Positions 5,644 to 40,939 of a stretch of 64,000 nucleotides of DNA are shown in pieces; position 1 is the stretch's first letter; every line of letters begins with the position of its first letter. Location of the stretch: positions 2,520,316 through 2,584,315 of the forward strand of contig JADJXY010000002.1 in assembly GCA_016720065.1 (NCBI GenBank). The letters run 5' to 3'. The stretch comes from Betaproteobacteria bacterium. GTDB taxonomy: Bacteria; Pseudomonadota; Gammaproteobacteria; Burkholderiales; Rhodocyclaceae. The position numbers were made by a program, and so were the translations under genes. The notes under the pieces were generated by a model, which was given only the letters and a program-made list of their open reading frames with translations, made no database searches and was not told the DNA's origin.

Positions 5644-5691
5644 CCGCAGGGCGGCAGTCTTGGCGTCACCATCACGCTTGAGGGGAACCCC

Positions 5692-6150: not shown

Positions 6151-6161
6151 CGGGCCGAGCG

Positions 6162-6290
6162 ATGTTCGAGAAGATTCTCATTGCCGACAGGGGCGACCAG
6201 CCGCCCCTCGGCGGCGTAGCGGCGAAGCCAAATCGCACCATGGCCGCAGGCCAACAGGGCGATCTCACCCCGGAGACGCTTAGTGTTTGA
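6162..6290 (+). other. Putative upstream leader ORF (42 codons) mimicking the AccC N-terminus, overlapping the accC start
   Basis: ATG at 6162 encodes MFEKILIADRGD..., 10/12 identical to Acc[13 protein letters not shown] but with different synonymous codons. Stop TGA 6288-6290 overlaps the accC GTG (6283). A 16/17-nt inverted repeat (6254-6270 vs 6311-6327) brackets GGAG and GTG. Confidence 0.3.
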
Positions 6291-7641: not shown

Positions 7642-7684
7642 CCGGGGTAACCCCCCTGGACAGCCCCTCTTGCGGAAGCCCCCG

Positions 7685-23203: not shown

Positions 23204-25250
<2,047 letters not shown>

Positions 25251-25289: not shown

Positions 25290-25440
25290 TTGCGCTCCTG
25301 GCGTTGTTGCTCATCCTCGCGATAGCTTCGGCTATCGCTGCCGAGGTTGCCAACTGCGGCGCCTAGCCAGAAACGCAAATCCGGCGCTTTCATCGTGTTC
25401 CGCCAATTACGAAGCAGACCACTAGCCCCATCAGGCGGCA
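25290..25440. repeat. REP-like dispersed hairpin repeat, copy 2 (diverged)
   Basis: ...ttgctcatcctcgcgatagcttcggctatcgctgc... hairpin gcgatagc-ttcg-gctatcgc, and shared tail gaccactagccc as in copy 1. Confidence 0.4.
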
Positions 25441-25511
25441 ACGCAAAGGCGGCCTCCAAGGCCGCCTTTGCGTTGGGGCAACTCGCCCGGGAATCCCCCG
25501 TCCAGCCGCCG

Positions 25512-26195
25512 CTACATGCCCAGGGACTTGAGCAGGTCGTCGTTGCCGTCGTCCGGCCGGGCAGCAGCCGGGGCCGCCATTTCGCCGTTGGTCTGGGCGA
25601 AGAGCTGGTCAGGATCGAGCGCTTCGTGGGGTTCGAAATCGCCGAGCCTGATGAATTCGGTCCGCTCGACGGCCAGCTCGAGGTAGAAAATGTTGTTACT
25701 GCCGGTGAAGAAGCTGACCCGCCGCGCCTCGGGTTGATCGAGGTTGGTGTCCACGCTGAGGATCACCTGCTTGTTGAGGACCAGCATCTTCGGCTGGTTC
25801 TGGGTGATATGCGTCTGCAACTCATGCCCGACCTTGCTGGTGAAATCGCCGACGATCTGGTTCATCAGCTCGCCCATGACATTGCTCACCTCGTCCGAGG
25901 TATGGGAGGCGGCCAGTTCCTCGTTGGTCATGCCCATGTTGAGCAGGTAGCTCGAATAGAGCTCCATGGCCGCCGGCGCCGTGAAATTGATCACCACCAG
26001 GCCGGAAAAGCCGCCGTCGAAAAGCACGAAGCAGCCGATGTCCGGCTTCAGGCAGGTCTTGGTGATGCGCTGGACCATGCCGGAAAAGCGAATCTGGCTC
26101 TGGGTGGCGGTGGTGAGAACCTTGGTCACTGAATTGCACAAACTCAGCAAAAGGTCTTCGGTCCCGAATACGACGGAGTTGCCTGGTGCGCTCAT
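25512..26195 (-). CDS. CheX/CheC-like domain protein (hypothetical)
   Basis: 227 aa; E-x2-N motifs (SDEVSNVMGELMNQIVG) reminiscent of the CheC/CheX phosphatase fold; acidic C-terminal tail. Assignment tentative. Confidence 0.45.
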   Translation of the reverse strand: MSAPGNSVVFGTEDLLLSLCNSVTKVLTTATQSQIRFSGMVQRITKTCLKPDIGCFVLFDGGFSGLVVINFTAPAAMELYSSYLLNMGMTNEELAASHTSDEVSNVMGELMNQIVGDFTSKVGHELQTHITQNQPKMLVLNKQVILSVDTNLDQPEARRVSFFTGSNNIFYLELAVERTEFIRLGDFEPHEALDPDQLFAQTNGEMAAPAAARPDDGNDDLLKSLGM

Positions 26196-26638
26196 GATGG
26201 CGTGGTCTATGAAAGGGAATTGGGATGGTCGCCCGAATCATAAGCTGGAAAGGGGCGCGGCAGCGCGACGACGCCAACCGATTCACGTCTTTGCCATCAC
26301 AGGCAGGGATTGAGGCCAAATCCGATGCGGCAGGAAGCAGGTGCTGCGGCTGCCAGGGCCGGTCTTCATCGGCCGCTTTGCAGCGTGGCCTGCGAGCCGG
26401 CATCAAGCGTATCCGCTTTTACGGCCTCCTGGTGCCAGCTTCGCGCTTGATCCATCCCAGTGCAGCCCTCACCGCCTATGCCATGCAATTGACTTCACGG
26501 GGCCACGCCTTACAATCCCATAGCCACCGCTTTCCCGGCGGTCCAGTCCAACGAGGGCTATCCGCCGACATGCCCCCTCGCCTTTCTCAAGCGCTTCCGT
26601 GCCGACGTATAAGCAAGCATCGTTAAGCAACTCAAGTC

Positions 26639-27100
26639 ATGTCCACTGATGAACTGTATGCAGAACTAAAAGGCGACATCGCCGCCATTGCCAATCCGTT
26701 GTTTGACTTCTCGGAGCAATGCCTTGAAAAGCGAGGCAATTTTCTTCCGCAGGGCGCAGTGCTCGATGCAAACGGAAAAGTCGGGCTTGTTGCTGCTTCA
26801 CCCGATCCAATTGGCCGGTCAAACTCCACAGAGGTTTTGCCTCACTTGCGCGAAGGGCTTCGCGCTCAAGCGAGGGAAGAAGAGTTGGCAGCTATCGGTG
26901 TCGCCGAAAATGTCACAGTCACTCCGCAAGGTCAGCCATCCACGGAAGCAATCAAAGTACTTTTTGAGCATGAGCGGGGGCTGGTTGTAGCGCTCTACCT
27001 CCCATTCAAAAAGAAATTCCTACGCGGCTACTCATTCGGCAAAGCGTTCACCGTTGCCACTGTCGGAGAAGTCAATGCTTGGCCTGAGTCCGTTGCCTGA
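26639..27100 (+). CDS. Hypothetical protein (orphan, in low-GC islet)
   Basis: 153-aa ORF with good RBS context in a locally lower-GC segment; no recognisable family. Confidence 0.45.
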   Translation: MSTDELYAELKGDIAAIANPLFDFSEQCLEKRGNFLPQGAVLDANGKVGLVAASPDPIGRSNSTEVLPHLREGLRAQAREEELAAIGVAENVTVTPQGQPSTEAIKVLFEHERGLVVALYLPFKKKFLRGYSFGKAFTVATVGEVNAWPESVA

Positions 27101-27186
27101 CATTTCGGTCGAAGCGCAGCTTCGCTGTTGGGGCGCGGTGCCGGCGAGGCCCGCCCGTCGCCCCTCACCTTGATTCGGAGGGCGTC

Positions 27187-27516
27187 ATGAGACCGTCCTT
27201 CGTTGAAATCGGTACTGCGTTAATCCTGGGGGCATTATTACTCGTTGCACTTTGGGCGCAGAGTCTGTTTCCAGCATTTCCTCACTGGAACGCGGGTTTG
27301 TCGGCCTTCGCATTCTGCGTTTTTGCTGCCTATATGGTCTTGGTCGATGATTCACTCCGCCCAACGAAGTCAGCTGCACATCGCATGATGGTAGGCATCT
27401 TGACCGGCATCGTAATCGCCGCACTGAACCATGCACCAGGCGAAGGCTTCCTATTGGGGGCAATGGTTGGCGGCATTCTTGGTTGGCTTGGGCGCCATTG
27501 GGCACAGCATTTATGA
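27187..27516 (+). CDS. Small hypothetical membrane protein (3 predicted TM helices)
   Basis: 109 aa, hydrophobic helices, AT-richer codon usage than surroundings. Confidence 0.4.
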   Translation: MRPSFVEIGTALILGALLLVALWAQSLFPAFPHWNAGLSAFAFCVFAAYMVLVDDSLRPTKSAAHRMMVGILTGIVIAALNHAPGEGFLLGAMVGGILGWLGRHWAQHL

Positions 27517-27822
27517 GCAACCCGCTCATTCGGGTAACCAGGAGTTTCTCTCCCCCGGCCCCCACAGCACCCACCGTGGGCGTCCGCAGGGGGCGGTTCA
27601 ACGAGGCGACTCACTCGACCGCGACGTATAGCCCTGGGCCCCTCACCACAGCTTCTTGATGCTCGGCACCCCCTGGGCCAATGGCCAGTCATTGTTCAAC
27701 GCTCGCTGCATCGCTGGAGTCCGCGCAAGGCTGGGGCGCAGGAGAGGGGGATGAAACCCAAGGGCGGCGAACTCGTGAAGAGCGGGTCGGGGCTTTACCG
27801 CAAGGCTTGAGCCCCCGGAAGT

Positions 27823-28839
27823 TCAGACCAGAAACACCCGAACGCGACCTTCGGCCTCCTCAAACCCGAAGCGCGCCGGAAGGAATTTTGCGATCACCGC
27901 GCAATTGGTCCTGGAGTGGGACGAGAGGGCGGAAGTCGTGAAACTCGCCGCCCCTCCGGCCAGAGCCAGCGGCAGCAACAACTGATCCGCCAGATGTTCG
28001 CCCACGGCGGCGCCGCTTTCGCGGTAGCGCCGGGCCTCCCGGGCGGCACGGTCGGCCACCGTTTCCGCCGGTACGCCACGGGCGCCGAAGGCAGAAAAGA
28101 CCTCCGTCACCCCGGGATACTCCAGAACCAGCATCAGGACGTTACCCGGCCCCTCGCCGTGGGGCAGCACCCGGAGCTCTTCGTCGAGGGGGCCCAGCAT
28201 GCTTGCGGCCCGCTGCATCTCGCGCTTGGCCACTTCGGCGGGCACGCCCGCCACCACGCCGATGGCGCTCGTGCGCCGCAACGCCCCCCGCGCGTCCAGT
28301 CGCAGGGGCTGCCAGGCTTTCACCGGGCCAGTGCGCGCCATCAGTTCGCCGCCACCCGCCGGGTAGAAACCGTGGCGCAGCAATTCGATATCCAGGGACA
28401 CCCCCATGGTCCGCAGCAGCGGCTGCCAACTGCGGATGAGAAAGTCGGCCGGGGGAGCGGCCGGATTGTGCGTCCCGCCGCTCACCCACAGGGTGCTGGG
28501 GCCTTCGGCAAACCACAGGGCCGGTAACACCGTTTGCAGCACCAGGGTGCAACTCCCGGCTGATCCGATGGCGAAGCGATAGTCTCCTGCCCGCACAGGC
28601 CCCGGCTGGAAGCGCAGGCGCAGGGATCCCGGCGCCGCGCCGTCCACCCTGGCCCCGCACACCGCCGCCGCAGCCTGCACGGCGGTCAGGTGCTGCCGCA
28701 GGAGGCCGGACTTCCCGCGCCCGGCGCGGATGCGCTCGATGGCGAAGGGGATGCCGGTAATCATCGACAGGCTGAGGGCGGTGCGCAGAATCTGCCCCCC
28801 GCCCTCGCCCTGGGAACCATCCAGTTCGATCCAGTCCAT
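27823..28839 (-). CDS. rtcA: RNA 3'-terminal phosphate cyclase
   Basis: 338 aa; RtcA family motifs and the adenylylated His region (…HLAD…); last gene of the rtc operon. Confidence 0.9.
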   Translation of the reverse strand: MDWIELDGSQGEGGGQILRTALSLSMITGIPFAIERIRAGRGKSGLLRQHLTAVQAAAAVCGARVDGAAPGSLRLRFQPGPVRAGDYRFAIGSAGSCTLVLQTVLPALWFAEGPSTLWVSGGTHNPAAPPADFLIRSWQPLLRTMGVSLDIELLRHGFYPAGGGELMARTGPVKAWQPLRLDARGALRRTSAIGVVAGVPAEVAKREMQRAASMLGPLDEELRVLPHGEGPGNVLMLVLEYPGVTEVFSAFGARGVPAETVADRAAREARRYRESGAAVGEHLADQLLLPLALAGGAASFTTSALSSHSRTNCAVIAKFLPARFGFEEAEGRVRVFLV

Positions 28840-28860
28840 GGTGTCGTTCTCGTTCTTTTT

Positions 28861-29679
28861 TCAGGACACCGCCAGTACCGTGCGCAGCAGAAAGGCGTCG
28901 AGTTCCGTCCCATCACCTTCCGGTTTCTTGTAGTCCGCATCCACCGGCGTTCGTGCCAGTTCATTGTCGATGAAGGCGTGGATATTTGGCCAACGCGCGC
29001 TGTATTCAGCCTCAGCGACGCTCATCTTGATCGCCAAGAGCGCGTTGATCTCGTCCAGCAACGCCACATCCGTCACCAGGGCCTCGGCCAGATCGGCAAA
29101 GCGCATGGGCGGCTGGCCCAGGCCGCACTCGATCCATTTCGCCGCCAGCAAGGGGCGAAGGACGTAAAGGTATTTCTTCAAGCGCACGTTTTCGCCTTGC
29201 AGATAGCTGCGAAAATTGCGGCGGGCCATGGACAGATAGTGATGGCGCCCACGCTTCGGGGAAAACCATTGGGCCGCGAAGTCGCGAAGTCCTGAGGTCA
29301 GCTCAGGGTCTTCCCGATATATCACCGGAGAATCCAGCCACTCGAGCAACACCGGATTGGCACGGCGCAATAGGCGCAGCGCCTTGCGCAATTCCCAGCC
29401 CCCCACGTCCAGTTCATCGCTGATCGGCAATTCGATCACGTCCCGCCTCGGTTCCACCGTCAGATACCAGGGCAGTCGGTGCACATAGAGAAAACGCACG
29501 TCGTAATCGCTATCGGGTGAGGCAAAGCCCCAGCCCCGACTGCCAGATTCACAGGCGTACAGCACCACCACATGGTGCTCTGCCTCGATGTCAGCGAGGG
29601 CCTGCATGACGCGCTTGCGCACCCCGGAGTCAATGGGGTGTGCACTCAGCACCTTGTTTCTCTCGCGCGAATCACTCAT
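28861..29679 (-). CDS. Predicted nucleotidyltransferase (Pol-beta superfamily, RtcB-associated PF10127-like)
   Basis: N-terminal GS...D.D motif (ESGSRGWGFASPDSDYDVRF) of minimal nucleotidyltransferases; 272 aa; inserted between rtcB and rtcA with 3-21 nt gaps. Confidence 0.7.
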   Translation of the reverse strand: MSDSRERNKVLSAHPIDSGVRKRVMQALADIEAEHHVVVLYACESGSRGWGFASPDSDYDVRFLYVHRLPWYLTVEPRRDVIELPISDELDVGGWELRKALRLLRRANPVLLEWLDSPVIYREDPELTSGLRDFAAQWFSPKRGRHHYLSMARRNFRSYLQGENVRLKKYLYVLRPLLAAKWIECGLGQPPMRFADLAEALVTDVALLDEINALLAIKMSVAEAEYSARWPNIHAFIDNELARTPVDADYKKPEGDGTELDAFLLRTVLAVS

Positions 29680-29682
29680 CGC

Positions 29683-30957
29683 TCACCCTTTCACGCACAC
29701 CACCTGCCGCAAGGTATGCACCACCGCCACCAGCTCGCGCTGGGCGTGCATCACGGCATCGATGTCCTTGTAGGCCATGGGGATTTCGTCGATGACTTCG
29801 CTGTCCTTGCGGCATTCGACGTGGGCGGTGGCCCTGATCTGGTCGTCCACGGTGAAGCGGCGCCGGGCCTCGTTGCGGCTCATGGCACGGCCGGCGCCGT
29901 GGCTGCAGGAGCAGAACGACTCTTCGTTGCCCAGGCCGCGCACGATGTAGCTGCGGGCGCCCATGGATCCCGGGATGATGCCGAGTTCGCCTTTCCTGGC
30001 CGACACGGCCCCCTTGCGGGTGACCAGCACCTCGGCGCCGAAGTGGGTTTCGCGCTGGACGTAGTTGTGGTGGCAGTTCACCGCCTCCACGTCGGCCGTG
30101 AAGGGCTTGGCGATGATGCGGCGGGCAGCGGCGACCACATGGCCCATCATCACGTCGCGGTTGCGGCGGGCGTAATCCTGCGCCCAGCCGACGGCTTCAA
30201 CGTAATCGGCAAAGTGCTCCGATCCTTCCTCGAAGTAGGCGAGATCCTTGTCCGGCAGATTGGCGATGTGCTGGCGCATGTCGGCCTGGGCCAGTTCGAT
30301 GAACAGGCTGCCGATGGCGTTGCCCACCCCGCGGGAGCCCGAGTGCAGCATGAACCAGACCCGGTCGGCCTCGTCCAGGCAGACTTCGATGAAGTGGTTG
30401 CCGGTACCCAGGGTTCCCAGATGCTTGTGGTTATTGGTGTTCTTGAGGCGCGGGTACTTCTCGGCGATGCGCCGGAAGCCCGGCAGCAGGGCCGACCACA
30501 GGGCGTCCACGGTCTCCGGCGGGGTTTCCCAGGCGCCCTTGTCGCGGCGGCTCTGGCGCGGCGGCGTGCGTCCGTGGGGCACCGCGACCTCGATGGCCGA
30601 ACGCAGGCCGTGCAGGCTGTCCGGCAGGTCGGCGGCAGTGAGCGTGGTGCGGGCGGCCATCATGCCGCAACCGATATCGACCCCCACCGCCGCCGGGATG
30701 ATCGCCCCTTGCGTGGGAATCACGCTGCCGATGGTGGATCCCTTGCCCAGATGGACGTCCGGCATCACCGCCAGGTGACGGAAGATGAACGGCAGGCTGG
30801 CCGTGTTCATCAATTGCTTGCGTGCCTCTTCCTCCACCGGGACGCCTTCGGTCCACAGCTTGATCGGCTTGCCCCGGGGCACTTCCTGAGTCTGGTAGGT
30901 CATGGTCTTTCCTTTCTTGCCGCTGCGCCATGCCAAGCGCCGCGGCCAAATTCTCAT
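29683..30957 (-). CDS. rtcB: RNA-splicing ligase RtcB (3'-phosphate/5'-hydroxyl RNA ligase)
   Basis: 424 aa, full-length RtcB similarity including metal-binding His/Cys residues and GTP-binding/guanylylated His region. Confidence 0.95.
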   Translation of the reverse strand: MRIWPRRLAWRSGKKGKTMTYQTQEVPRGKPIKLWTEGVPVEEEARKQLMNTASLPFIFRHLAVMPDVHLGKGSTIGSVIPTQGAIIPAAVGVDIGCGMMAARTTLTAADLPDSLHGLRSAIEVAVPHGRTPPRQSRRDKGAWETPPETVDALWSALLPGFRRIAEKYPRLKNTNNHKHLGTLGTGNHFIEVCLDEADRVWFMLHSGSRGVGNAIGSLFIELAQADMRQHIANLPDKDLAYFEEGSEHFADYVEAVGWAQDYARRNRDVMMGHVVAAARRIIAKPFTADVEAVNCHHNYVQRETHFGAEVLVTRKGAVSARKGELGIIPGSMGARSYIVRGLGNEESFCSCSHGAGRAMSRNEARRRFTVDDQIRATAHVECRKDSEVIDEIPMAYKDIDAVMHAQRELVAVVHTLRQVVCVKG

Positions 30958-30964
30958 TGCATTA

Positions 30965-31387
30965 TCAGGCGCGGGCGGCCATCACGGCCAGACGCGCCTG
31001 CTTCTTCAGCAAGCCGGCCAGCGCTGCCTGCCGGGCCTGCTCCTTGCGCTGCCGCTCGCGCTGACGGCAGGCGCAGCAGCGTTTGGCGCCGGCGTACTGG
31101 GAACCGCCGGCGCATTCGTACCACCAGCGCTGGCGCTCGGCGGTCCATACGCACTGCGCCCCACAATCGCAGCAGGTGAAGGGCTGATCGAGGTAGTAGC
31201 CCCGCTCGGCAAAAGCGCTGCGGCCATAGCTGTTATTCGCCATCAGCCGGCCGTAGTCCACCGACACGGCCCTTCCCTCGGCGAACAAGGGGGGCTCGGG
31301 ATGCCGCCGATTCTCCGCCTGACGCCGCTCCCGCCGGGCCGCCTTGATCTCGGCCCGGCGCTGCTTTCCACTCCTGTAGCCTTCCAT
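30965..31387 (-). CDS. Basic Cys-rich zinc-ribbon-like protein (hypothetical), rtc-operon encoded
   Basis: 140 aa; Arg/Lys-rich N- and C-termini; Cys cluster FTCCDCGAQCVW...YECAGG...KRCCACRQ; 7 nt from rtcB and 45 nt from the slipin gene. Confidence 0.55.
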   Translation of the reverse strand: MEGYRSGKQRRAEIKAARRERRQAENRRHPEPPLFAEGRAVSVDYGRLMANNSYGRSAFAERGYYLDQPFTCCDCGAQCVWTAERQRWWYECAGGSQYAGAKRCCACRQRERQRKEQARQAALAGLLKKQARLAVMAARA

Positions 31388-31432
31388 GTTGCGTTCTCCT
31401 TTCCTGCCCCCGATCCGGAGGCCGGCCCTGCC

Positions 31433-32569
31433 TTACTTCGCCAGGGTCACCAGGCCATTGAGCACCTGGTCGAGGCCCCCGAAGACCGAGATGCGGTCGA
31501 TGCGCTCGGCCACCCGCTCCAGGGTTTCCAGTTCCTTCAAACGCAGGGCAACCGGGTTGTCTTCCATCACCTTGGCCGTATTGAGCAACGAACGGGTCGC
31601 CGCCGTTTCTTCGCGCCGACGGATCACGTTCGCTTCGGCGGCCTTGCCCGCCTGCACCACCTGGGCCAGGATGGCCTTCATCTCGCCCGGCAGCACGATG
31701 TCCTTGACCCCGACGCCGCCGATCTCCAGGCCGAAGCCCGCCAGTTTCCGGGCGACGTGGGCGCTCACCGCCTCGTCGATGAGCTGCTTGTTTTCCAGCA
31801 GTTCGTCCAGATTGCGCGTTCCCACCGCCGCCCGCAGGCCGAATTGCAACTCGCGGTAGAGGTGTTCGGCCGGCTTGGCCAGGCGGGCGAAGGCGGTGCT
31901 GACGTCCTCGAAGCGCCAGGTGGCGGCGAGGTTGAGGCGCAGCGCCACCTTGTCGCGGGTGAGGATTTCCTGGCCGCTCACTTCGAGGGACTGCCAGCGC
32001 ATATCCACCAGGTCCACCTGAAGATCACGGTTGAAGCGCCAGTAGGCGGTCACCCCCGGTGCCAGCAGAGGCTGCTGCACGCCGTCGAGCCGCAGCACGC
32101 CGACGTGGGCCGCTGGCACCTGCACGACGAGAACACCGTTCAATCCGAGCACCGGGCGGCCGCGCAGGGCGGGTTGCAAGAGGCGCTTCACCATTGCCCC
32201 CGGCAGCGCGGCGCCCGCGCCCAGATCGAGCTTTTCCAGGCGCTGCGCCACCCCGCCGCGCCAGAAGATGCGGCGGGAAGCCGGGGGCAGCATTTCGACC
32301 AGAACCTCGTTCTCGTAGCGCAGCCCGACTTCGTCCTCGCTCATCTCCATCCACAGGAAGTGGCGTTCTGCCTCGGCCGGATCGTTGCGGCGCAGGGTAT
32401 CGACCAGATCGGTATCCGGCATCGGCGTGTCGGTCTGCCACAGGGCCAGCGACAGCTCGTTGAGCAGGTCGAACCGATAGTGGCGGCCCGGATCGAGGAT
32501 GCACTCGAAGTCGCCGTTTCGCAGCAGGGCGGCCCGTTGGTTCTTCTTCACGATGAAACGCTTCAACAT
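31433..32569 (-). CDS. SPFH/band-7 (stomatin/prohibitin/flotillin-like, slipin) domain protein
   Basis: 378 aa with SPFH core (…GVKDIVLPGEMKAILAQVVQAGKAAEANVIRRREETAATRSLLNTAKVME…); GGGAG RBS. Confidence 0.8.
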   Translation of the reverse strand: MLKRFIVKKNQRAALLRNGDFECILDPGRHYRFDLLNELSLALWQTDTPMPDTDLVDTLRRNDPAEAERHFLWMEMSEDEVGLRYENEVLVEMLPPASRRIFWRGGVAQRLEKLDLGAGAALPGAMVKRLLQPALRGRPVLGLNGVLVVQVPAAHVGVLRLDGVQQPLLAPGVTAYWRFNRDLQVDLVDMRWQSLEVSGQEILTRDKVALRLNLAATWRFEDVSTAFARLAKPAEHLYRELQFGLRAAVGTRNLDELLENKQLIDEAVSAHVARKLAGFGLEIGGVGVKDIVLPGEMKAILAQVVQAGKAAEANVIRRREETAATRSLLNTAKVMEDNPVALRLKELETLERVAERIDRISVFGGLDQVLNGLVTLAK

Positions 32570-32861
32570 GTTCTGCTCCCTTCAATTGCAAATGTCTTCG
32601 TCAACAGCGACGGCTCAACTTGCCGGCTTACGCCGGTCCGGCGGGCACCGTGCCGGGCTCCGGCGGGGGAGCCCCCGGACGGGAGGACGGGGCTGGCGGC
32701 GACCCCTGGCACCGTTGCCAAGGCCGCGCGGCCACTGCCGCCCGACACCGGAGGCCCTGCCGCCGAAGCGAAGCGAAGCGCCGGGCCGAACCGGCGGCGG
32801 GTGCTTGCGCATTCCGCAGCCGGCGGGCACTGCAAAATTCACTGTCGTGAAAGACAGTTCT

Positions 32862-32938
32862 GGAGCGGGATTCGAACCCGCGACCGACCGTTTACAAGAC
32901 GGCTGCTCTACCCGATTGAGCTATCCACAGGTGGGGTT
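32862..32938 (-). tRNA. tRNA-Thr(UGU)-like element with imperfect acceptor stem (possible pseudo-tRNA or tRNA mimic)
   Basis: Minus-strand sequence has D-arm TAGCTCAATCGGGTAGAGC, anticodon stem-loop GCCGT-CTTGTAA-ACGGT (UGU) and T-arm GCGGG-TTCGAAT-CCCGC. Acceptor 3' strand TCCAGAA pairs with only 5/7 of the 5' strand, and no CCA is encoded. Confidence 0.5.
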
Positions 32939-33100
32939 CCGGGAATCGGACCCGGGCGTGCCACCAGGCACCCCGATATCGCTTTCCCGCGACGGCGGCA
33001 TACGGCGGAGCAACCGGAGGATTCCTGACTCCACCGCACCGGCGGGGATGCGATCCCCTGACCCGTCGGCCCTGCCGCAAGTCGGCGATGGCTTCCCTAA

Positions 33101-33117
33101 CGCGAAAGCCGTGCCAG
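33101..33117 (-). promoter_or_regulatory. Candidate sigma54 (-24/-12) promoter for the rtc operon
   Basis: Minus-strand cTGGCACggctttcGCg (GG-N10-GC spacing) ~150 nt divergent from the rtcR start and ~165 nt upstream of the tRNA-like element; -12 region is a weak match to TTGCA. Confidence 0.35.
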
Positions 33118-33266
33118 CCCAAGCAGGCAACCGCAACTCACTGATTTAAAGCTGTTTCGCCAATTCCACCCGGCAAGGTGGCCGAATTATGTGATTTCTC
33201 TGTATAGTCACTTATAAATTTATATACATCGCGATTCGCCGACCAGCGCAACACAGCCAAGCCTCC

Positions 33267-34883
33267 ATGAAAAAAACTGTCGTGATCGGCTTTCTCGGCA
33301 CCCAGCTCGACTACGCCGGCAAGGGCACGGCACGCTGGGACCGGTGGCGGCCCACCGTGGCCCTGTGCCAGCAGGAAAGCCTGCTCGTCCATCGCCTCGA
33401 GGTGATCCACGACCTGCGCAGCCGGAGCCTCGCCGAACGGGTGGGCAACGACATCGCCCGCATTGCGCCGGAGACCGAGTTCAAGCGGGTGGAAATGGAA
33501 CTGCGCGACCCCTGGGATTTCGAGGAGGTCTATACCGCGCTGCACGACTTCGCCCGCGGCTACGCCTTCGATCCGGAAAATGAGGAATACCTCATCCACA
33601 TCACCACCGGCACCCACGTCGCGCAGATCTGCTGGTTCCTGCTCGCCGAGGCGCATTACCTGCCGGCCCGCCTGCTCCAGACGTCGCCGCCGCGCAAAAA
33701 GGATGTCGCCGACAGCATCGGCGGATACGAGATCATCGATCTCGATCTGTCGCGCTATGACCGCATCGCCCAGCGCTTTGCCCGGGAACGCGACGACAGC
33801 GTCTCCTTCCTCAAGTCGGGGATCGCCACGCGCAATCCAGGGTTCAACCGCATGATCGAACAGATCGAGCACGTGGCCGGCCGCTCGCGCGCCCCCATGC
33901 TCCTGGTCGGCCCCACGGGGGCGGGCAAGTCCTTCCTTGCCCGGCGGGTCTTTGAACTCAAGCGCCAGCGGCAGGCATTGACGGGGCGCTTCGTCGAAGT
34001 CAATTGCGCCACCCTGCGCGGCGATTCCGCCATGTCCGCCCTGTTCGGCCACAGCAAGGGCGCCTTCACCGGCGCCCAGCAGGAGCGGCCGGGCCTGCTG
34101 CGGTCCGCCGACGGCGGCCTGCTCTTTCTCGATGAAATCGGCGAACTCGGCCTCGACGAGCAAGCCATGCTGCTCAAGGCCATCGAGGAAAAGCGCTTCT
34201 TTCCCTTCGGCAGCGACCAGGAAGCCAGCAGCGATTTCCAGTTGATCGCCGGCACCCATCGCGACCTGCGCCAGTGGGTGCGCCAGGGCAGGTTCCGCGC
34301 AGACCTCTACGCCCGCATCAACCTATGGACCTTCGACCTGCCGGGCCTCGCCGGCCGGCCCGAGGACATCGAGCCCAATCTCGACTACGAACTGGAACGC
34401 TTCGCCGCCGATCACGGCCAACGGGTGCGCTTCAACAGCGAGGCGCGGCGGCGCTACCTCGCCTTCGCCACCTCGGCCGCAGCGCGCTGGCACGGCAATT
34501 TCCGCGAACTCGGCGCCTCACTGACCCGCCTCGCCACCCTGGCCGCCGCCGGACGCATCACCGAGCCCGACGTGGCCGACGAAATCGCCCGACTCACCGC
34601 CACCTGGGCTGAGGAGCCGAGCGGCGACGCCAGCGCGGAAATCCTTGGCGCCGACGCGGAAGCCCTCGACCTCTTCGATCGCAGCCAGTTGAACACCGTG
34701 ATCGCCGTCTGCCGCGCCAGCGTCAGCCTGTCCGAGGCCGGTCGCCGCCTGTTCGCCGTCTCCCGGGCGGAAAAGAAGCAGCGCAACGATGCCGACCGCC
34801 TGCGCAAGTACCTGGCCCGCTTCGGCCTCACCTTCGACACGCTGCGCAAACCCGCCGCGAGCGCCCGGCAAGTTCCTTCATGA
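33267..34883 (+). CDS. rtcR: Sigma54-dependent transcriptional regulator RtcR (CARF domain + AAA+ sigma54-activation domain + HTH)
   Basis: 538 aa; N-terminal CARF-like domain typical of RtcR, central Walker A GPTGAGKS, GAFTGA motif (HSKGAFTGAQ), ESELFGH-like region; divergent from the rtcBA operon. Confidence 0.9.
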   Translation: MKKTVVIGFLGTQLDYAGKGTARWDRWRPTVALCQQESLLVHRLEVIHDLRSRSLAERVGNDIARIAPETEFKRVEMELRDPWDFEEVYTALHDFARGYAFDPENEEYLIHITTGTHVAQICWFLLAEAHYLPARLLQTSPPRKKDVADSIGGYEIIDLDLSRYDRIAQRFARERDDSVSFLKSGIATRNPGFNRMIEQIEHVAGRSRAPMLLVGPTGAGKSFLARRVFELKRQRQALTGRFVEVNCATLRGDSAMSALFGHSKGAFTGAQQERPGLLRSADGGLLFLDEIGELGLDEQAMLLKAIEEKRFFPFGSDQEASSDFQLIAGTHRDLRQWVRQGRFRADLYARINLWTFDLPGLAGRPEDIEPNLDYELERFAADHGQRVRFNSEARRRYLAFATSAAARWHGNFRELGASLTRLATLAAAGRITEPDVADEIARLTATWAEEPSGDASAEILGADAEALDLFDRSQLNTVIAVCRASVSLSEAGRRLFAVSRAEKKQRNDADRLRKYLARFGLTFDTLRKPAASARQVPS

Positions 34884-36832
34884 GCGGTTTCGTGGCGTTC
34901 GCCGGCGCGCCCCCTCCCGGGTATCATTTCACCCCCCTCTCGGACACCGCCATGAGAACTTCCCCCGACCTCGACTGGTACAACGCCGTCGAACATCTCT
35001 GCCACGCTTCTGCCGGCCACCTCCTGGCCGGCATCGCGTTTCCCGAATTCCGCAACCGGGTGGAACTGCTGGTGGGGCCGCTCTTCGACCAGCTTCCCCT
35101 GGGACAGGCGGCCCGCGTGCCGGAAATCATTCGCGCCCTCGCCACCCAGGCGGCCCTGGAAATCTGGAACGCCACGCCGATTCCGGCCAATCGCTTCCGC
35201 CCGCTGAAAATCGCCAAGCCGGAGCGCAACGCGCCCTGCCCCTGCGCCTCCGGCCGCAAGTACAAGCAGTGCTGCGGTGCTGTCCCGCCCCCGAGCCTGG
35301 GCATCCGGGAGGAAACGATGCTCGCCCAGGTCATCGCGCACTGGCCGAGAAAGCGGCTGGGCGAACTGCCCCTGGCGGAGCTTCATCCCGAAAGCCTCGC
35401 CCTGGTCGCGCTGGACTGGCAGGAAGAGGGCAGCGACATGGACGCCATCGCGCTGCTGGAAGCCCTCTTCACCCATCTGCCCAAACTCGACGGCCGCGCA
35501 GAACACGCGGCGGACGTTCTCCTCGACCTCTACGGGGACGGCAGCAAATCGCGCAAGAAGCTGGCCTTTCTCGAACAACTCAAGGCGGCTCCCGACAAGA
35601 CCCTGCGCTCGACCGCCTGGCAGCGCCAGGCCACGCTGGCCTGCGACCGCGGCGAGGTGACCGCCGCCTGGGCAGCCTTTGGCGAAGCCCAGCGCCTGAC
35701 CCCCAACGCCCCTGCCCTCTCGCACCTCGAAGTGCTGCTCCTGCTCAGCGAGGGTCGGCGCACCGAGGCCAGGGCCCGGGCCGATTTCTGGTGCGCCCGC
35801 CTGGCCCGCGACGGCAAGTTCGACCACAGCAGCCTTATCGACACCCTGCGCGACATGGTCTCCGACGACGACGAAGCCCGCCTGCGCAACCTCGCCCTCA
35901 TGGACGATCCCCTGGGCGACGTAGCCGACATTTCCGGCGACTGGACGGCCCCCGCCTGCCATTACACCCTGGCCGGGGGCGCGGTCCTGCAGGCCAAGGC
36001 TCCCCTGGCCCGCGTCGAGAAGGCCTGGGACGAAGCCTTCGACCCCCATGACCCGGAGTCTGACGGCTGGATCGATCTGCTGGAAGACGAGCCTCTCGCT
36101 GCCCAATCCTTCCTGGTCTTGCGCGATCTGGTCGAGTGGGCGCTGGACATCCCGACCATGCCCCCGGGAGGCAATATTGTCCTGGCGTGGAAACTGCTCG
36201 AGCGGGCCGAGGCGCTTCGCCGCACGGTCCTCGCCCGCCTCAAGGCCGAAGACCGCGAACTTCCCTGGGGCCACCTCGAAAACCGCCCCCTGCTCACCCT
36301 GGCCGCCATTCGGGTCACGGAATTTGCCAACCGCAATCCGGAGGAGACCCTGGAACTCCTGCGCTGGTCGGTCCTCGTCGCCAACCCCAACGACAACACG
36401 GGACTGCGCGAAATCCTGATTCACCGCCTGGCCGCCGAGGGTCACGGTGGTGAAGCCGTGGCGATCGCCGAACGCTATCCGCATGACCTGGCCTTCGTCG
36501 ATTATGGGCGTGTCCTTGCCTACCACGCCGCCGGGCGTCTGGACGAAGCCGCCGTAGCCCTCTCCCAGGCCATCACGCGCTGGCCCAAGGTGTGGCAGAC
36601 CCTCAATGCCGCCAGACCGCGCAAGCCCAAGCTCGAATTCATGGGATTTTGCTCCGGCGGCGACGACGAAGCCTGGATTTACCGCGAGGAGCGCCTGGAG
36701 CAGTGGCGCCAGAGCGGCGCCCTGCGCTGGGCCGTCGGGCTGAAGGTCGCCCAGCCCCCCGCCCGGCAGTCGTCCCGCAGGAAGCGCGTTGCCGTCCCCA
36801 CGCAGGCGGAACTTCCCGGACTGGACGACTGA
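34880..36832 (+). CDS. SEC-C metal-binding motif protein (hypothetical), translationally coupled to rtcR
   Basis: 650 aa; SEC-C/YecA-type zinc motif NAPCPCASGRKYKQCCG; start ATG overlaps the rtcR stop (ATGA at 34880-34883). Confidence 0.6.
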   Translation: MSGFVAFAGAPPPGYHFTPLSDTAMRTSPDLDWYNAVEHLCHASAGHLLAGIAFPEFRNRVELLVGPLFDQLPLGQAARVPEIIRALATQAALEIWNATPIPANRFRPLKIAKPERNAPCPCASGRKYKQCCGAVPPPSLGIREETMLAQVIAHWPRKRLGELPLAELHPESLALVALDWQEEGSDMDAIALLEALFTHLPKLDGRAEHAADVLLDLYGDGSKSRKKLAFLEQLKAAPDKTLRSTAWQRQATLACDRGEVTAAWAAFGEAQRLTPNAPALSHLEVLLLLSEGRRTEARARADFWCARLARDGKFDHSSLIDTLRDMVSDDDEARLRNLALMDDPLGDVADISGDWTAPACHYTLAGGAVLQAKAPLARVEKAWDEAFDPHDPESDGWIDLLEDEPLAAQSFLVLRDLVEWALDIPTMPPGGNIVLAWKLLERAEALRRTVLARLKAEDRELPWGHLENRPLLTLAAIRVTEFANRNPEETLELLRWSVLVANPNDNTGLREILIHRLAAEGHGGEAVAIAERYPHDLAFVDYGRVLAYHAAGRLDEAAVALSQAITRWPKVWQTLNAARPRKPKLEFMGFCSGGDDEAWIYREERLEQWRQSGALRWAVGLKVAQPPARQSSRRKRVAVPTQAELPGLDD

Positions 36833-37059: not shown

Positions 37060-37144
37060 ATCACCCCAGGCGAGCACGCTGCAATCCCCTTGGCAAGGGC
37101 AACTCGTTCAATTGATATGACCGGCAGCGGAAGTTACGCTTCTT

Positions 37145-38449
37145 TCAACCGCCCCCCAGCCGCCGCACCGCCAGCCCCTGGCGTCCAAAATGCTCGATCA
37201 ACTCCTCCTGGTGGGTGGCATCGCGGGTTTCCATCTGCAGGATGATCTCGGTCATGCCGACGGGAACATGCAATTCCCCCCTTCGGTGCTCGACGTGGCG
37301 AACGTTCATGCCGTGCTCGGCCACCAGCCCGAGGATGCCGGCCAGGCGGCCCGGGGTGTCGGGGACGCGCACGGCGATGCTCAACAACCGGCCGCTGCTG
37401 GCCAGACCATAGTCGATGCTGCGGCCGATGAGGGTCATGTCGGCGTTGCCGCCGCTGATCACCACCACGGTCGGGCGGTCGGCGGCCAGGGGCACCAGGC
37501 CGCGCATGAGGGCGGCGAGGCCGACGGCGCCGGCCCCTTCGCCCAGGGTGCGGGTGCGCTCCAGGAGTCGCACCATGGCTTCGGCGATGGCCTCGTCGTC
37601 CACGGTGACGATGGCGTCCACGTGCCTGGCGATGACCTGGCGGGTGAGCCGGCCCGGCAGCTTGACGCGGATGCCGTCGGCGATGGTGTGGGCGTCGGCC
37701 GGCACCGGGTCGATGCCGCCATCGGCCAGGAAGTGCCGCCAGGGGGCGACGGCGTCGGTCTGGACCCCCACCAGGCGGACGTCCGGCCGTTGCAGCTTGA
37801 CCGCCAGGGCGATGCCGGCCAGCAGCCCGCCCCCGCCCAGGGGGACGACGATCTGGGCCGTCTCCGGCAGGGCTTCGAGGATTTCCAGGCCGACACTCGC
37901 CTGACCGGCGATGATTTCCCAGTCGTCGTAGGCGTGGATGAGGCTGGCGCCGCTCTGGGCGGCAATGGCCTCGGCGACCCGCCGCGCCTCTTCCAGATTG
38001 CTCCCCTCCAGTACGACCTTCGCCCCCAGGCTGCGACAGGCCTCGATCTTGGTCAGGGGCGCGTCGAGCGGCATGACGACGGTAGCCGCCAGCCCCGCCT
38101 CCCGGGCGGCCCGCGCCACACCCTGGGCATGGTTCCCGGCAGAAGCCGCCACCACGCCGCTGCCGCCCTCGCCCCGCCCCAACAGGCAGGCGATCTTGTG
38201 AGCAGCGCCGCGCAGCTTGAAGGACCCGGTACGCTGGAGGTTTTCCAGCTTGAGGTGGATGGGGGCGCCAAATTCCCGCGCCAGCGGTTCGTTGCCCCAC
38301 AGGGGCGTGGTCAGCACGGTCCCGGAGATCGACTGGCGGGCTGCGCGGAGCGCAGGCAGGTCGGGCAATGCGGCAAGAGCAGGCATGGTCACTTCCGGCA
38401 CGAGGACGTGCAGCAAGCGTAAATCCTTTGCCGCCGCAGATAAAGGCAT
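37145..38449 (-). CDS. Threonine ammonia-lyase (threonine dehydratase), PLP-dependent with C-terminal ACT-like domain
   Basis: PLP-lysine motif (GSFKLRGA), TTPLW, Gly-rich loop (GGGGLLAGIA), C-terminal regulatory domain. Start ambiguous (38449 or 38386); longer upstream extension rejected. Confidence 0.8.
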   Translation of the reverse strand: MPLSAAAKDLRLLHVLVPEVTMPALAALPDLPALRAARQSISGTVLTTPLWGNEPLAREFGAPIHLKLENLQRTGSFKLRGAAHKIACLLGRGEGGSGVVAASAGNHAQGVARAAREAGLAATVVMPLDAPLTKIEACRSLGAKVVLEGSNLEEARRVAEAIAAQSGASLIHAYDDWEIIAGQASVGLEILEALPETAQIVVPLGGGGLLAGIALAVKLQRPDVRLVGVQTDAVAPWRHFLADGGIDPVPADAHTIADGIRVKLPGRLTRQVIARHVDAIVTVDDEAIAEAMVRLLERTRTLGEGAGAVGLAALMRGLVPLAADRPTVVVISGGNADMTLIGRSIDYGLASSGRLLSIAVRVPDTPGRLAGILGLVAEHGMNVRHVEHRRGELHVPVGMTEIILQMETRDATHQEELIEHFGRQGLAVRRLGGG

Positions 38450-38732
38450 GGCGGATCGTCGACAATGGCGCTTTTCTCCTGCAGGCCACCCCATGGATTG
38501 CCGCCCCGGCTGCGCAGCCTGCTGCATTGCCCCCTCCATCAGCTCCCTGCACAAGCCGGCGGGAGACCCCTGCCCACATCTCGACGCGGCCTTGCGCTGC
38601 GGACTCTTCGGCCGGCCGGAACGCCCGGCCTGCTGCTCCGGGCTGCAGCCCTCGCCCGAAATGTGCGGCACGTCCCGGGAATACGCCCTCGGCTGGCTGC
38701 AGGCGCTGGAGACGGCAACGCATCCGGGATAG
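38448..38732 (+). CDS. YkgJ-family CxxCxxCC zinc/iron-chelating domain protein (UPF0153-like)
   Basis: Small ORF with CRPGCAACCIAPS motif; upstream part of the long ORF frame is likely non-coding. Start uncertain (38448 or 38496). Confidence 0.45.
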   Translation: MADRRQWRFSPAGHPMDCRPGCAACCIAPSISSLHKPAGDPCPHLDAALRCGLFGRPERPACCSGLQPSPEMCGTSREYALGWLQALETATHPG

Positions 38733-38759
38733 AATGCCGCCTCCCCGAACGGAGCCCCC

Positions 38760-39584
38760 ATGGATCCCCTGCTGCTGCTCAAGGCCCTCATTCTCGGCAT
38801 CGTCGAGGGGCTGACCGAATTCCTCCCGGTGTCGTCCACCGGCCATCTGATCATCGTGGGCAGCCTGCTGGGATACACGGACGAGCAGAGCAAGGTATTC
38901 AAGATCGTCGTTCAGCTCGGCGCCATCCTCGCAGTCTGCTGGGACTTCCGCGAGCGCATCGGCAAGGCCCTGGGCGGCCTGGGGTCCGACCCGGTCCAGC
39001 AACGTTTTGCCGGCCTGCTGGTCGTCGGCTTCCTGCCGGCGGCAGTGCTGGGACTTCTGTTTCACAGTGCCATCAAGACGCATCTGTTCAATCCCTTGAC
39101 GGTGGCAGCGGCCCTGATCTGCGGCGGCTTCCTGATCCTGTTCATCGAACGCAAGGCCTATCACCCCCGGGTCACCAGCGTCGAAGACATGACGTGGCAA
39201 GACGCCCTCAAGGTCGGCTTCGCCCAGGCCGCGGCCATGTTCCCCGGCGTTTCCCGCTCGGGGGCGACCATCATGGGCGGCCTGATTTTCGGACTGTCGC
39301 GCAAGACGGCTACCGAGTTTTCCTTCTTCCTGGCCATCCCGACCATGTTCGCGGCGACCACCTACGACGTCTACAAGAACTGGCAACTGCTGCGCCTGGC
39401 CGACCTGCCGGTCTTCGCCGTCGGCTTCGTCGCCTCCTTCGTCGCCGCCATGCTGACGGTCAAGGCCCTGCTGCGTTATGTCTCGCATCACGATTTCACC
39501 GTCTTCGCCTGGTACCGCATCGCCTTCGGCCTCCTCGTACTGGCCACCTGGCAGTTGGGCTGGGTCGAGTGGGCCGCCCGTTGA
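38760..39584 (+). CDS. uppP: Undecaprenyl-diphosphate phosphatase
   Basis: 274 aa, 8-TM BacA/UppP family with conserved [13 protein letters not shown] and [10 protein letters not shown] motifs. Confidence 0.9.
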
Positions 39585-39731
39585 GCGGCGGACGACGCTG
39601 TCGGAGAATTTGACACGGCGTCCTGGAGGGCAAGCCTGGCCCGGGCGGGAAGATACTCAAAATCAGTAACCTGTGGCACATGGCATGAATATGGCTAGGC
39701 ATTCCGCACCGCAATGCCAACCGGAGATCTC

Positions 39732-40304
39732 ATGAAAAATACGCTGCGCCTCGCTCTCGCCACCGCCGGATTTGTCTGCACCCTGTCCGCCCAGGCCGCT
39801 CCCCAGTTTTTCAATGGCCACTATTACGATTACATCAACAACACCAGCGGCGGCTTCACGCAGGACGAAGCCCTGGCCGACGCGGCGGGCCGCAGCCACC
39901 TCGGCATGACCGGTTATGTCGCGACGGTGACCTCCCTGGCCGAGCAGAATTTCATTTTCAGTTCCGTGAGCAACCTCACCGCCTGGCTGGGCGGCAACGA
40001 CCGCGGCACCGAGGGCAGCTTCACCTGGGTCAATGGCCCCGAATCTGGCAGCGCCTTCGGCTTCACCTTCTGGTCGGGGGGCGAACCGAACGATTGCTGC
40101 AGCGGCGAAGACGACGTGGTCATCAACTGGGGGGGCGACGGCAGTTGGAACGACATCGGTCTGCCCTCCTTCCCTGATTACCGCGTGGGCTACATCATCG
40201 AATACAGCGGCACCCCTGTGAGCGTCCCGGAGCCGGGCGCCCTGGCTCTGGCCGGAATCGCCCTGGCCGGCCTTGGGAGCATGCGCCGCCGCCAGAAGCC
40301 CTGA
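39732..40304 (+). CDS. Secreted C-type lectin-like domain protein with PEP-CTERM sorting signal
   Basis: Signal peptide; lectin-like core (WLGGND...EG.F.W..G..........FW..GEPND); C-terminal VPEPGALALAGIALAGLGSMRRRQKP = PEP motif + TM + basic tail. Confidence 0.7.
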   Translation: MKNTLRLALATAGFVCTLSAQAAPQFFNGHYYDYINNTSGGFTQDEALADAAGRSHLGMTGYVATVTSLAEQNFIFSSVSNLTAWLGGNDRGTEGSFTWVNGPESGSAFGFTFWSGGEPNDCCSGEDDVVINWGGDGSWNDIGLPSFPDYRVGYIIEYSGTPVSVPEPGALALAGIALAGLGSMRRRQKP

Positions 40305-40312
40305 CCGGCACC

Positions 40313-40939
40313 TTGCCTGAAACGACAGTCCCGCTCCGGCGGGATTGTTTTTTGCGGCCTCCGGCGGTGATCCTCTACCTGCACGGCTTCTGCTCCTCCC
40401 CCGACTCCTGGAAGGCCCGCCTTTTGGCCCAGGCCTTTGCCGAGCGGGGTCTGGGCAATGATTTTCTCTGCCCGGCGCTCTCGCCCCTGCCTGCGGAGGC
40501 CATGGCCCTTGCGGAGTCTCTTCTCCGCACGGCCCCTCGCCCCGTGACCCTGGTGGGGAGTTCCCTGGGCGGACACTACGCCACCTGGCTGGCCGAAAAG
40601 CACGATCTGCGCGCAGTGCTCATCAACCCCGCCGTGGTCAGCCGCCTCGACCCCGCCCGCTTTCTGGGCGAGCACGCCAATTTCCACAGCGGCGAGCGCT
40701 TCAGCTTCACCGTGGCGCACGCCGCCCAACTGGCCGCCCAGTGCGTGGAGCATCCCGACCCTCGCCGTTACCTCCTGCTGGTCGAAACCGGCGACGAAGT
40801 TCTCGATTATCGGCAGGCGACGGAGCACTACGCCGGCTGCCACCAGATCGTCCTCCCCGGGGGCGATCACAGCTTCACGCAATTTCCCGGATTCATCACG
40901 CAAATCCTTGAGTTCGCTGGAGTTCGTGCCGGGATATAA
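40313..40939 (+). CDS. YqiA-like alpha/beta hydrolase esterase (UPF0227)
   Basis: LYLHGFCSSP...GSSLGGHYA nucleophile elbow; ~200 aa. Confidence 0.6.
   Translation: MPETTVPLRRDCFLRPPAVILYLHGFCSSPDSWKARLLAQAFAERGLGNDFLCPALSPLPAEAMALAESLLRTAPRPVTLVGSSLGGHYATWLAEKHDLRAVLINPAVVSRLDPARFLGEHANFHSGERFSFTVAHAAQLAAQCVEHPDPRRYLLLVETGDEVLDYRQATEHYAGCHQIVLPGGDHSFTQFPGFITQILEFAGVRAGI

Follow-up and report, generated by a model that had tools for sequence, protein, structure and literature searches.

A full-size RtcR/sigma-54-controlled Band-7/b7a-tRNA RNA-repair operon with a covarying leader RNA in a Rhodocyclaceae genome

What is a tRNA-like element doing at the head of an RNA-repair operon? The question is raised by a locus in a genome of the family Rhodocyclaceae (Betaproteobacteria bacterium, assembly GCA_016720065.1, contig JADJXY010000002.1), of which a stretch of 64 000 nucleotides (nt), positions 2 520 316 to 2 584 315 of the forward strand, was analysed; we call this whole stretch the window and count positions from its first letter. 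On the minus strand a tRNA-like element is followed, in this order, by genes of an SPFH/Band-7 protein, a zinc-finger protein, RtcB, RlaP and RtcA; the regulatory gene rtcR diverges from them. The analysis places this locus, as a full-size member, in the RtcR/sigma-54-controlled ‘Band-7/b7a-tRNA’ class of RtcB RNA-repair operons; it forms a self-contained 7-kb cassette at 27823-34883, and its tRNA-like element is part of a much larger structured RNA. The kind of system is already known, though experimentally unexplored; the locus is a genuine and complete member of it.

The operon genes, all on the minus strand, were identified by profile searches. The leader is followed by the gene of a 378-amino acid (aa) SPFH/Band-7 (‘slipin’) protein, likely a soluble one (31433-32569; PF01145, 96 bits). 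Then come genes of a basic Cys-rich treble-clef zinc-finger protein of 140 aa (30965-31387; PF13451 zf_Tbcl, 34 bits against a cutoff of 24; isoelectric point 10, eight Cys residues), of the 3′-phosphate/5′-OH RNA ligase RtcB of 424 aa (29683-30957; PF01139, 430 bits, full-length) and of the RNA-ligase-associated Pol-beta nucleotidyltransferase RlaP of 272 aa (28861-29679; PF10127 RlaP, 314 bits, full-length). The final gene, rtcA, codes for an RNA 3′-terminal phosphate cyclase of 338 aa (27823-28839; PF01137, 256 bits; NF003246, 446 bits with a cutoff of 352). Divergent rtcR (33267-34883, plus strand) codes for a CARF + AAA+ sigma-54 activator of 538 aa, with a CARF-like domain at the N-terminus, an AAA+ domain for interaction with sigma-54 and an HTH at the C-terminus; the model NF038308 RNA_repair_RtcR (839 bits, cutoff 650) spans residues 1-527, and PF06956 and PF00158 matched with 287 and 167 bits, respectively. 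The closest protein matches, at 100% identity, came from a metagenome-assembled genome of Azonexus sp.

A preliminary description of this DNA, made from its letters alone, had listed these open reading frames (ORFs), all of which were present, and had taken them, with spacings of 3-45 nt, for one transcript. The gaps from the Band-7 gene to rtcA are indeed 45, 7, 3 and 21 nt, and a consensus scan found no sigma-70 promoter or intrinsic terminator above chance within the operon (4 terminator-like sites versus 7.3 expected).

Upstream of the leader, the sequence TGGCACGGCTTTCGCG (33101-33116, minus strand), with GG at −24 and GC at −12, fits the −24/−12 consensus of sigma-54 promoters. Of 63 intergenic regions between rtcR and Band-7, all 63 have the motif TGGCAC-N5-TCGC, its position and its distance from rtcR being constant, and the promoter is missing from loci that have no rtcR. 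Alignment of close relatives revealed one more conserved block between rtcR and the promoter, an AT-rich one (33186-33232, no strand assigned; ..TTTATAAnTnACTATA..; TTTATAAnTnACTATA...ATC); judging from its sequence and position, it could be an RtcR upstream activating site, an IHF site or the rtcR promoter.

Conservation of the arrangement was assessed in 80 genomic loci anchored on the Band-7 protein, out of at least 600 stretches; the 80 loci span Rhodocyclaceae, Gallionellaceae, Thiobacillus, Burkholderia, Ralstonia, Pseudomonas and others. Among the 70 loci with enough flank, 58 had divergent rtcR. RtcB came after Band-7 in 60 of 65 related loci, and RlaP, RtcA and the zinc finger were found in 32, 36 and 23 of these 65, respectively; conservation of the extra genes with rtcR and rtcB, proposed in the preliminary description, is thus borne out. 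As far as gene content tells, the zinc-finger protein is an optional member of the module. Since RtcB, RlaP, RtcA and the zinc finger occur together in only 11 of the 65 loci, the window carries a ‘full’ version. At least 58 other genomes have the Band-7 architecture itself. Homology of the DNA to that of close relatives begins at the rtcA end of the 7-kb block and ceases at its rtcR end, with flanks that differ among genomes; therefore, the block acts as a cassette in varied genomic contexts. A phage origin was considered and rejected: there was no match in INPHARED phages, the RNA motif was unmatched in IMG/VR, and a single IMG/VR contig (L087) carries the Band-7 and RlaP genes alone, with no detectable RNA.

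The leader extends over 531 nt from the promoter to the Band-7 ATG, and its conservation reaches from Rhodocyclaceae as far as Pseudomonas and Burkholderia. Over its first ~480 nt the predicted transcript is a multi-domain structured RNA of five elements, all on the minus strand. The 5′ domain (32987-33080; helices 1-4) has a closing helix, a GGGG/CCCC hairpin and a hairpin of 18 base pairs; helix 4 is 93.3% paired, with compensatory changes in 12 of 18 pairs. It is followed by a truncated tRNA-like module (module 1, 32933-32974; helices 5-7) with an acceptor-like stem, a short D-like stem and a T arm (96.9% paired, with covariation) and no anticodon arm, and by a tRNA-Thr(UGU)-like cloverleaf of the b7a-tRNA type (module 2, 32857-32930), called both by ARAGORN and by the Rfam tRNA model (57.7 bits). 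Directly after the cloverleaf there is a small conserved hairpin, CUGUC-N6-GACAG (32842-32857; helices 12-13), that covaries among relatives (UGUCC/GGACA, UGCCC/GGGCA, AGCC/GGCU). The 3′ domain (32622-32824), delineated by folding and covariation, is a single GC-rich helix, long (~200 nt) and irregular, whose tip varies; the window sequence of this domain, folded alone, gave the consensus hairpin (minimum free energy −140.8 kcal/mol, z = −4.69). A Shine-Dalgarno-like GAAGGGAG (32576-32583, minus strand), read from the sequence, stands ahead of the Band-7 ATG outside the structured RNA; both it and the start codon are ~40 nt beyond the last helix and are not sequestered.

Covariation was evaluated segment by segment, by L-INS-i alignment, RNAalifold and manual counting of pairs, as RNAalifold applied to the whole leader misfolded the tRNA region. 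In the 5′ half (45 sequences, 69 pairs) 91.9% of cells were paired, versus 38-48% with partners slid; 46 pairs had compensatory changes and 0 of 500 shuffles reached the observed value. The figures for the 3′ domain (62 sequences, 37 pairs) were 92.8% versus 30-44%, with 33 compensatory pairs and, again, 0 of 500 shuffles. With both segments pooled, ~92% of cells were paired and compensatory changes were present in 79 of 106 pairs. The ‘290-nt structured spacer’ of the preliminary description is therefore real: it measures 287 nt, contains the long hairpin and covaries across 62 genomes. The tRNA-Thr-like element was also correctly recognized there, though the coordinates given, 32862-32938, are 5-8 nt off the boundaries found here.

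No Rfam 15 family covers the leader; the tRNA model alone matched in this region, in the window as well as in loci of Pseudomonas, Burkholderia, Ralstonia, Accumulibacter and Roseateles. Membership in the YrlA, mascRNA or tmRNA families, suggested by a permissive Rfam search, was rejected; these matches were below threshold and reflect the common T and D arms. For YrlA (RF02553) the score was 21.9 bits versus a gathering score of 69, from the T-arm/D-arm stretch only, and the mascRNA-like and YrlA-like alignments of module 1 were likewise below threshold. We also discarded a small ORF in the spacer (32563-32835, 90 aa), which showed non-triplet indels and a variable centre in a region with strong RNA covariation, and a terminator after the tRNA-like element, of which the U-rich tail seen in the window is not kept in relatives and which the scan did not flag.

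Could the cloverleaf be a working tRNA after all? In the window its acceptor pairs 1-72 (C/A) and 3-70 (G/G) are mismatched; across the family only four acceptor pairs are kept (UGGA/UCCA or UCGA/UCGA); the 3′ side reads ..UCCAGAAC and passes into the hairpin, with no CCA. The elbow, on the other hand, is canonical, with the D-loop GG and the T-loop UUCGAAU (in the window UAGCUCAAUCGGGUAGAGC and GCGGGUUCGAAUCCCGC), and is near-invariant in the family. Among 59 copies, the D and T arms are near-invariant, whereas the anticodon arm is hypervariable, the least conserved part: 7-nt loops occur in 26 copies, with at least nine different triplets, and most of the others have UUCG, GAAA or GCAA tetraloops or other loops of 5-6 nt. 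‘Anticodons’ of orthologues (CAU, AAU, GAU, AAC, GUU, ACG, or tetraloops in their place) change even between close relatives. The window happens to have a canonical 7-nt loop, CUUGUAA, with U33, A37 and the ‘anticodon’ UGU. The sequence comparison thus indicates that the element cannot be a working tRNA, because of the acceptor mismatches, the four-pair stem, the absence of CCA, the adjoining hairpin and the free anticodon arm. The element is 287 nt upstream of Band-7 in the window, and its homologues are 230-360 nt upstream in related loci; the position and strand behind the sigma-54 promoter are the same in >60 genomes.

Module 1 is present as a full second cloverleaf in many Pseudomonas, where ARAGORN calls two tandem elements. 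In many Rhodocyclaceae it ends in N-CCA right before the first base of module 2 (e.g. ..CAUCCCA-CCA-CUGGAUAG in locus L001); the window counterpart, at 32930-32939, reads ..ACCCCA-CC-UGUGGAUAG. The N-CCA end could be a matter of chance or a 3′ end related to processing.

The Band-7 protein has a family-specific β-rich N-terminal region (residues 1 to ~185), an SPFH domain and a long C-terminal helix. Stomatin structures from PDB matched residues 187-365. The AlphaFold2 model had a predicted local distance difference test score (pLDDT) of 81.8 overall and of 92.3 for the N-terminal region alone, with the long helix at residues 295-357; the top Foldseek matches to it were the stomatin, HflK/C, prohibitin and erlin cages (E-values 1e-14 to 1e-10 for stomatin, HflK/C and prohibitin). 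The N-terminal region is confined to this Band-7 subfamily (370 representatives). Contrary to the idea of a membrane scaffold put forward in the preliminary description, no transmembrane or hydrophobic segment was found in the protein: Kyte-Doolittle means over 19 residues peak at 1.65, in residues 140-158, where the model has a β strand with pLDDT >85. Profile search found no NfeD match adjacent to Band-7, its neighbours being the leader RNA and the zinc-finger protein. As there is neither a hydrophobic segment nor an NfeD neighbour, a soluble oligomer is more likely.

The Band-7 and RlaP genes also occur as a pair by themselves. Between yjbD and lysC, 1625 of 5426 complete Escherichia coli genomes (~30%) carry such a ‘slipin + nucleotidyltransferase’ pair (e.g. 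locus L088, CP061233.1 611814-613738); no RtcB adjoins it, and the gap of 530 nt upstream yielded no tRNA-like RNA with ARAGORN or Rfam.

In 79 of 83 sequences, the 5′ half of the leader directly precedes Band-7, also at loci that have neither rtcR nor the sigma-54 promoter. A sequence profile located one near-full-length copy of the 5′ half per locus, as in the window, always directly upstream of Band-7; other matches were partial. In rtcR-less loci of the Roseateles type the 5′ half is kept, the 3′ domain is replaced and the upstream region is a different one. As the 5′ half stays with Band-7 in such loci, the RNA tracks the Band-7 gene and not RtcR.

Loci of this type (L043, L053, L056, L058, L067, L070, L071, L077 and L079, from Roseateles, Pelomonas and other Burkholderiales, at ~5600-7750), with the 5′ leader half in place and the sigma-54 promoter and the 3′ helix gone, are situated directly downstream of ordinary tRNA arrays of up to nine genes (Arg, Ala, Glu, Trp, Pro, Asp, His, Leu and Gln in L070). 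They have a conserved upstream motif of their own (..GCCTCAGCTGAGGCG..ACGAATCTGCCGAGGA).

How does the locus relate to systems already described? As recounted by Wang et al. 2018 (10.1101/312249), Burroughs and Aravind 2016 (Nucleic Acids Res) predicted in silico an arrangement of Band-7, ‘b7a-tRNA’ and RlaP next to RtcB; the tRNA-like RNA was experimentally unvalidated as of Wang et al. 2018. RlaP received its name in the 2016 work too. The class shares with the window Band-7 beside RtcB, a tRNA-like gene directly ahead of Band-7, RlaP, RtcA and the PF13451 zinc finger, and in gene content the window is no different. Hence the module, which the preliminary description had taken to be more elaborate than the described rtcBA pair, is not new to the literature; the Pseudomonas aeruginosa locus PA4581-PA4585 has been described too. 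In comparison with the class as so recounted, the window adds the placement of the tRNA-like element within a covarying RNA of ~480 nt, the second module and the two flanking domains. A large covarying two-module RNA, as predicted here from sequence, would go beyond the citing paper’s description, which has a tRNA-like RNA only.

In P. aeruginosa, PA4581 (rtcR), PA4581.1, PA4582 (PaFlo8), PA4583 (rtcB), PA4584 (RlaP) and PA4585 (rtcA) have the order and orientation seen in the window; earlier papers point out PA4582/PaFlo8 as an SPFH protein encoded within the rtc locus (PMC13086221; PMC8619066), and both P. aeruginosa and P. fluorescens have the RlaP gene between rtcB and rtcA (PMC12776372). 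The RlaP family adds one or two nucleoside monophosphates to 3′-OH ends of RNA (PMC12776372). Band-7 proteins of P. paraeruginosa and other Pseudomonas are 63-66% identical to that of the window, and the sigma-54 promoter and leader RNA are homologous; however, the Pseudomonas loci examined (e.g. L047 of P. paraeruginosa) have no zinc-finger gene, and in many other Pseudomonas species there are two complete tandem cloverleaves, in contrast to the complete and the truncated one of the window. A 2026 paper described PA4581.1, between rtcR and PA4582, as an odd ‘tRNA-Arg4’ without CCA and with G20; its RNA, measured by quantitative reverse-transcription PCR, was at ~50% of canonical tRNA levels (PMC13637947); of the tRNA-like RNA, these were the sole data found from after 2018.

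The rtcR/rtcBA locus of E. coli K-12 shares with the window the divergent CARF-type rtcR, the sigma-54 promoter, RtcB and RtcA, and is without the Band-7, zinc-finger and RlaP genes and the tRNA-like leader. Closer in plan is the Salmonella rsr-yrlBA-rtcBA operon, with RtcR/sigma-54 control, a non-coding RNA with a tRNA-like domain before rtcBA and a non-enzymatic ring or scaffold protein paired with the RNA; for the window the latter pairing is suggested by the genes and their sequences. The comparison with rsr-Y RNA-rtcBA drawn in the preliminary description was apt, including the absence of Ro60: no TROVE/Ro60 protein was found among the five operon ORFs in the profile search, each of them being assigned to another family. 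A soluble SPFH protein appears in its place, and the window RNA is several times larger than YrlA, whose model it does not match. At the level of the predicted fold, an SPFH domain followed by a long helix is also the plan of the stomatin, HflK/C and prohibitin cages. The presumed pairing of an SPFH-type shell with a small RNA would recall, in addition, the eukaryotic vault, with the shoulder domain of MVP, vault RNA and the TROVE protein TEP1.

The identities of the parts, the promoter, the conserved order, the structure of the RNA and its co-occurrence with Band-7 came out of the analysis directly; any mechanism goes a step beyond them. From published work on relatives, RtcA makes cyclic phosphate ends, RtcB ligates such ends to 5′-OH ends and RlaP extends trimmed 3′ ends by one or two nucleotides. 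In the reading that we favour, the leader RNA would, once the operon is induced, be set free or persist as the partner of a soluble SPFH protein that probably forms rings or cages; the RNA may also be bound to the basic zinc-finger protein. The invariant tRNA elbow would then be a handle gathering tRNA-recognising repair enzymes or damaged tRNAs, and the elbow with its flanking helices would make a platform for repair enzymes or tRNA substrates, as was proposed for Y RNA with Ro60. On balance, and by a modest degree of confidence, we favour this Ro60/Y RNA-like reading, with the leader as the RNA partner of an SPFH oligomer and a platform for repair. Its more specific form, in which a discrete multi-domain non-coding RNA and an SPFH ring or cage, perhaps with the zinc finger, assemble into a Ro/Y-RNA-like or vault-like ribonucleoprotein that presents damaged tRNAs to RtcB, RlaP and RtcA, is tentative; we would not call it likely.

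Several points weigh against the platform reading. Binding of the leader RNA to the SPFH protein, processing of the RNA from the mRNA and an effect on repair are steps that we infer from sequence. The level of PA4581.1 was unchanged on induction of the Rtc proteins (PMC13637947), which fits poorly with simple co-transcription from the RtcR promoter. The E. coli and viral pairs that come without the RNA imply that the Band-7 protein can exist without it. Finally, the position at the 5′ end of the mRNA makes a purely cis-regulatory role equally compatible with conservation and covariation.

Such a cis-acting leader is the main rival. In this case the structure would regulate the operon mRNA, for instance as a sensor of a tRNA-binding protein, of uncharged or damaged tRNA or of RtcB, or as a signal for RNase P/E processing or for stability, and would have no separate life as the RNA partner of Band-7. 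From the conserved promoter up to the start codon of Band-7, the entire 5′ untranslated region is taken up by the leader; the coding genes follow without an intervening terminator, and tRNA-like elements in mRNAs are known processing signals. However, the Shine-Dalgarno sequence and start codon are left unsequestered, and mutually exclusive pairings were not evident; the 5′ half of the leader stays with Band-7 where rtcR and the sigma-54 promoter are lost and another upstream region is used, and the abundance of the P. aeruginosa RNA suggests a stable species (PMC13637947). We consider the purely cis-acting role unlikely, though it is the weightiest of the alternatives. The tRNA-like module might instead serve anticodon nucleases and ribotoxins as a decoy or a sensor substrate, and its cleavage would protect real tRNAs or yield cyclic-phosphate fragments feeding back on the CARF domain of RtcR. 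RtcR is activated by tRNA fragments with cyclic phosphate ends (Hughes et al. 2020, PMC7790460), and YrlA has been suggested to act as a decoy; the canonical loop of the window, with U33 and A37, would suit a decoy as well. Yet it is the anticodon arm that the family fails to conserve, tetraloops and loops of 5-6 nt cannot mimic an anticodon, and a decoy needs neither the conserved elbow nor the flanking domains. The combination of a free anticodon arm and invariant D and T arms therefore argues against a decoy for anticodon nucleases, an idea implicit in the ‘tRNA mimic’ of the preliminary description and improbable in our view, and for recognition via the tRNA elbow. Least credible is the view that a tRNA-Thr gene, ordinary or in decay, or the scar of a tRNA-derived integration happens to lie beside the rtc genes with an unconstrained spacer; genome annotations do call such copies tRNA genes (e.g. 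PA4581.1), the Rfam tRNA score is 57.7 bits and the cassette with its varying flanks looks mobile. Against this stand the defective acceptor stem without CCA, the ‘anticodon’ that differs between close relatives, the fixed position and strand behind the promoter and flanking sequence that covaries as RNA; as far as sequence analysis goes, this explanation is refuted.

What non-enzymatic ribonucleoproteins (Ro60/Y RNA, vault) do in RNA repair and quality control has long been an open question, and in the present operon class an SPFH protein and a tRNA-like RNA stand in for Ro60/Y RNA. Pathogens amenable to genetics carry such operons (P. aeruginosa PA4581-PA4585, Burkholderia, Ralstonia; the RNA also in Burkholderia cenocepacia), where the covarying multi-domain RNA, with its invariant elbow and dispensable anticodon, leads to concrete predictions on scaffold ribonucleoproteins in tRNA repair. 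There is a practical side too: annotations list such elements as plain tRNA genes (‘tRNA-Arg4’ in PAO1, tRNA-Thr here), which can mislead analyses of tRNA repertoire and codon usage.

Does the cassette extend beyond rtcR? An ORF of 650 codons with a SEC-C motif begins at 34880, its ATG overlapping the rtcR stop codon (ATGA), and the preliminary description had seen in it a translationally coupled component of the system. The overlap is literally there; however, the identical annotated protein has 626 aa, and homologues of 615-631 aa cover residues ~25-650 only. As the annotated protein and its homologues begin at this position, the real start is probably Met25 at 34952, which would leave a gap of 68 nt after rtcR and no ATGA coupling. 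A SEC-C accessory of the RNA-damage response could draw further on the recurrence of the adjacency with rtcR in a relative that is 89% identical, and on a weak Tcf25/Rqc1-like Pfam match seen in one distant homologue. That near relative is the only other case of adjacency, though, and its gap is 76 nt; tblastn found a SEC-C homologue in 0 of the 80 Band-7/rtcR loci; homology of the cassette to relatives ceases at the rtcR end; and in Dechloromonas denitrificans, an Azonexus lineage and a third genome the homologues have no rtcR nearby and reside beside restriction-modification, Wadjet or HEPN-MNT islands. We thus regard a coupled accessory as very improbable and conclude, by comparison of genomes, that SEC-C is a resident gene beside which the rtc cassette landed.

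The variable defence islands bordered by relatives of the SEC-C/TPR gene (34952-36832, plus strand; relatives L081 and L083-L085) include type I restriction-modification with AAA/DUF4276, Wadjet JetB/MksE with HEPN-MNT, and type III restriction-modification; in the window, this defence-island hotspot may be where the rtc cassette sits. In Dechloromonas, parC on the plus strand follows the SEC-C gene.

On the other side of the cassette, four ORFs of 133-261 aa (25347-26132, 26225-26626 and 26639-27100 on the plus strand, 27185-27601 on the minus strand) fill the region 25347-27601 between thiC and rtcA; none had a Pfam match and none was common to the rtc flanks of relatives. The thiC gene itself (23295-25250, plus strand; PF01964, 614 bits) is directly preceded by a thiamine pyrophosphate (TPP) riboswitch (RF00059, 64.7 bits, 23205-23294, plus strand), an ordinary arrangement. 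Beyond the SEC-C gene, the longest ORF at 37134-39491 (785 aa, minus strand, GTG start) had no Pfam match and overlaps plus-strand ORFs of 410 and 382 aa. It is followed on the plus strand by the gene of a small C-type-lectin-like protein with a PEP-CTERM sorting signal (39714-40304) and, after it, by that of a UPF0227 alpha/beta hydrolase (40313-40939).

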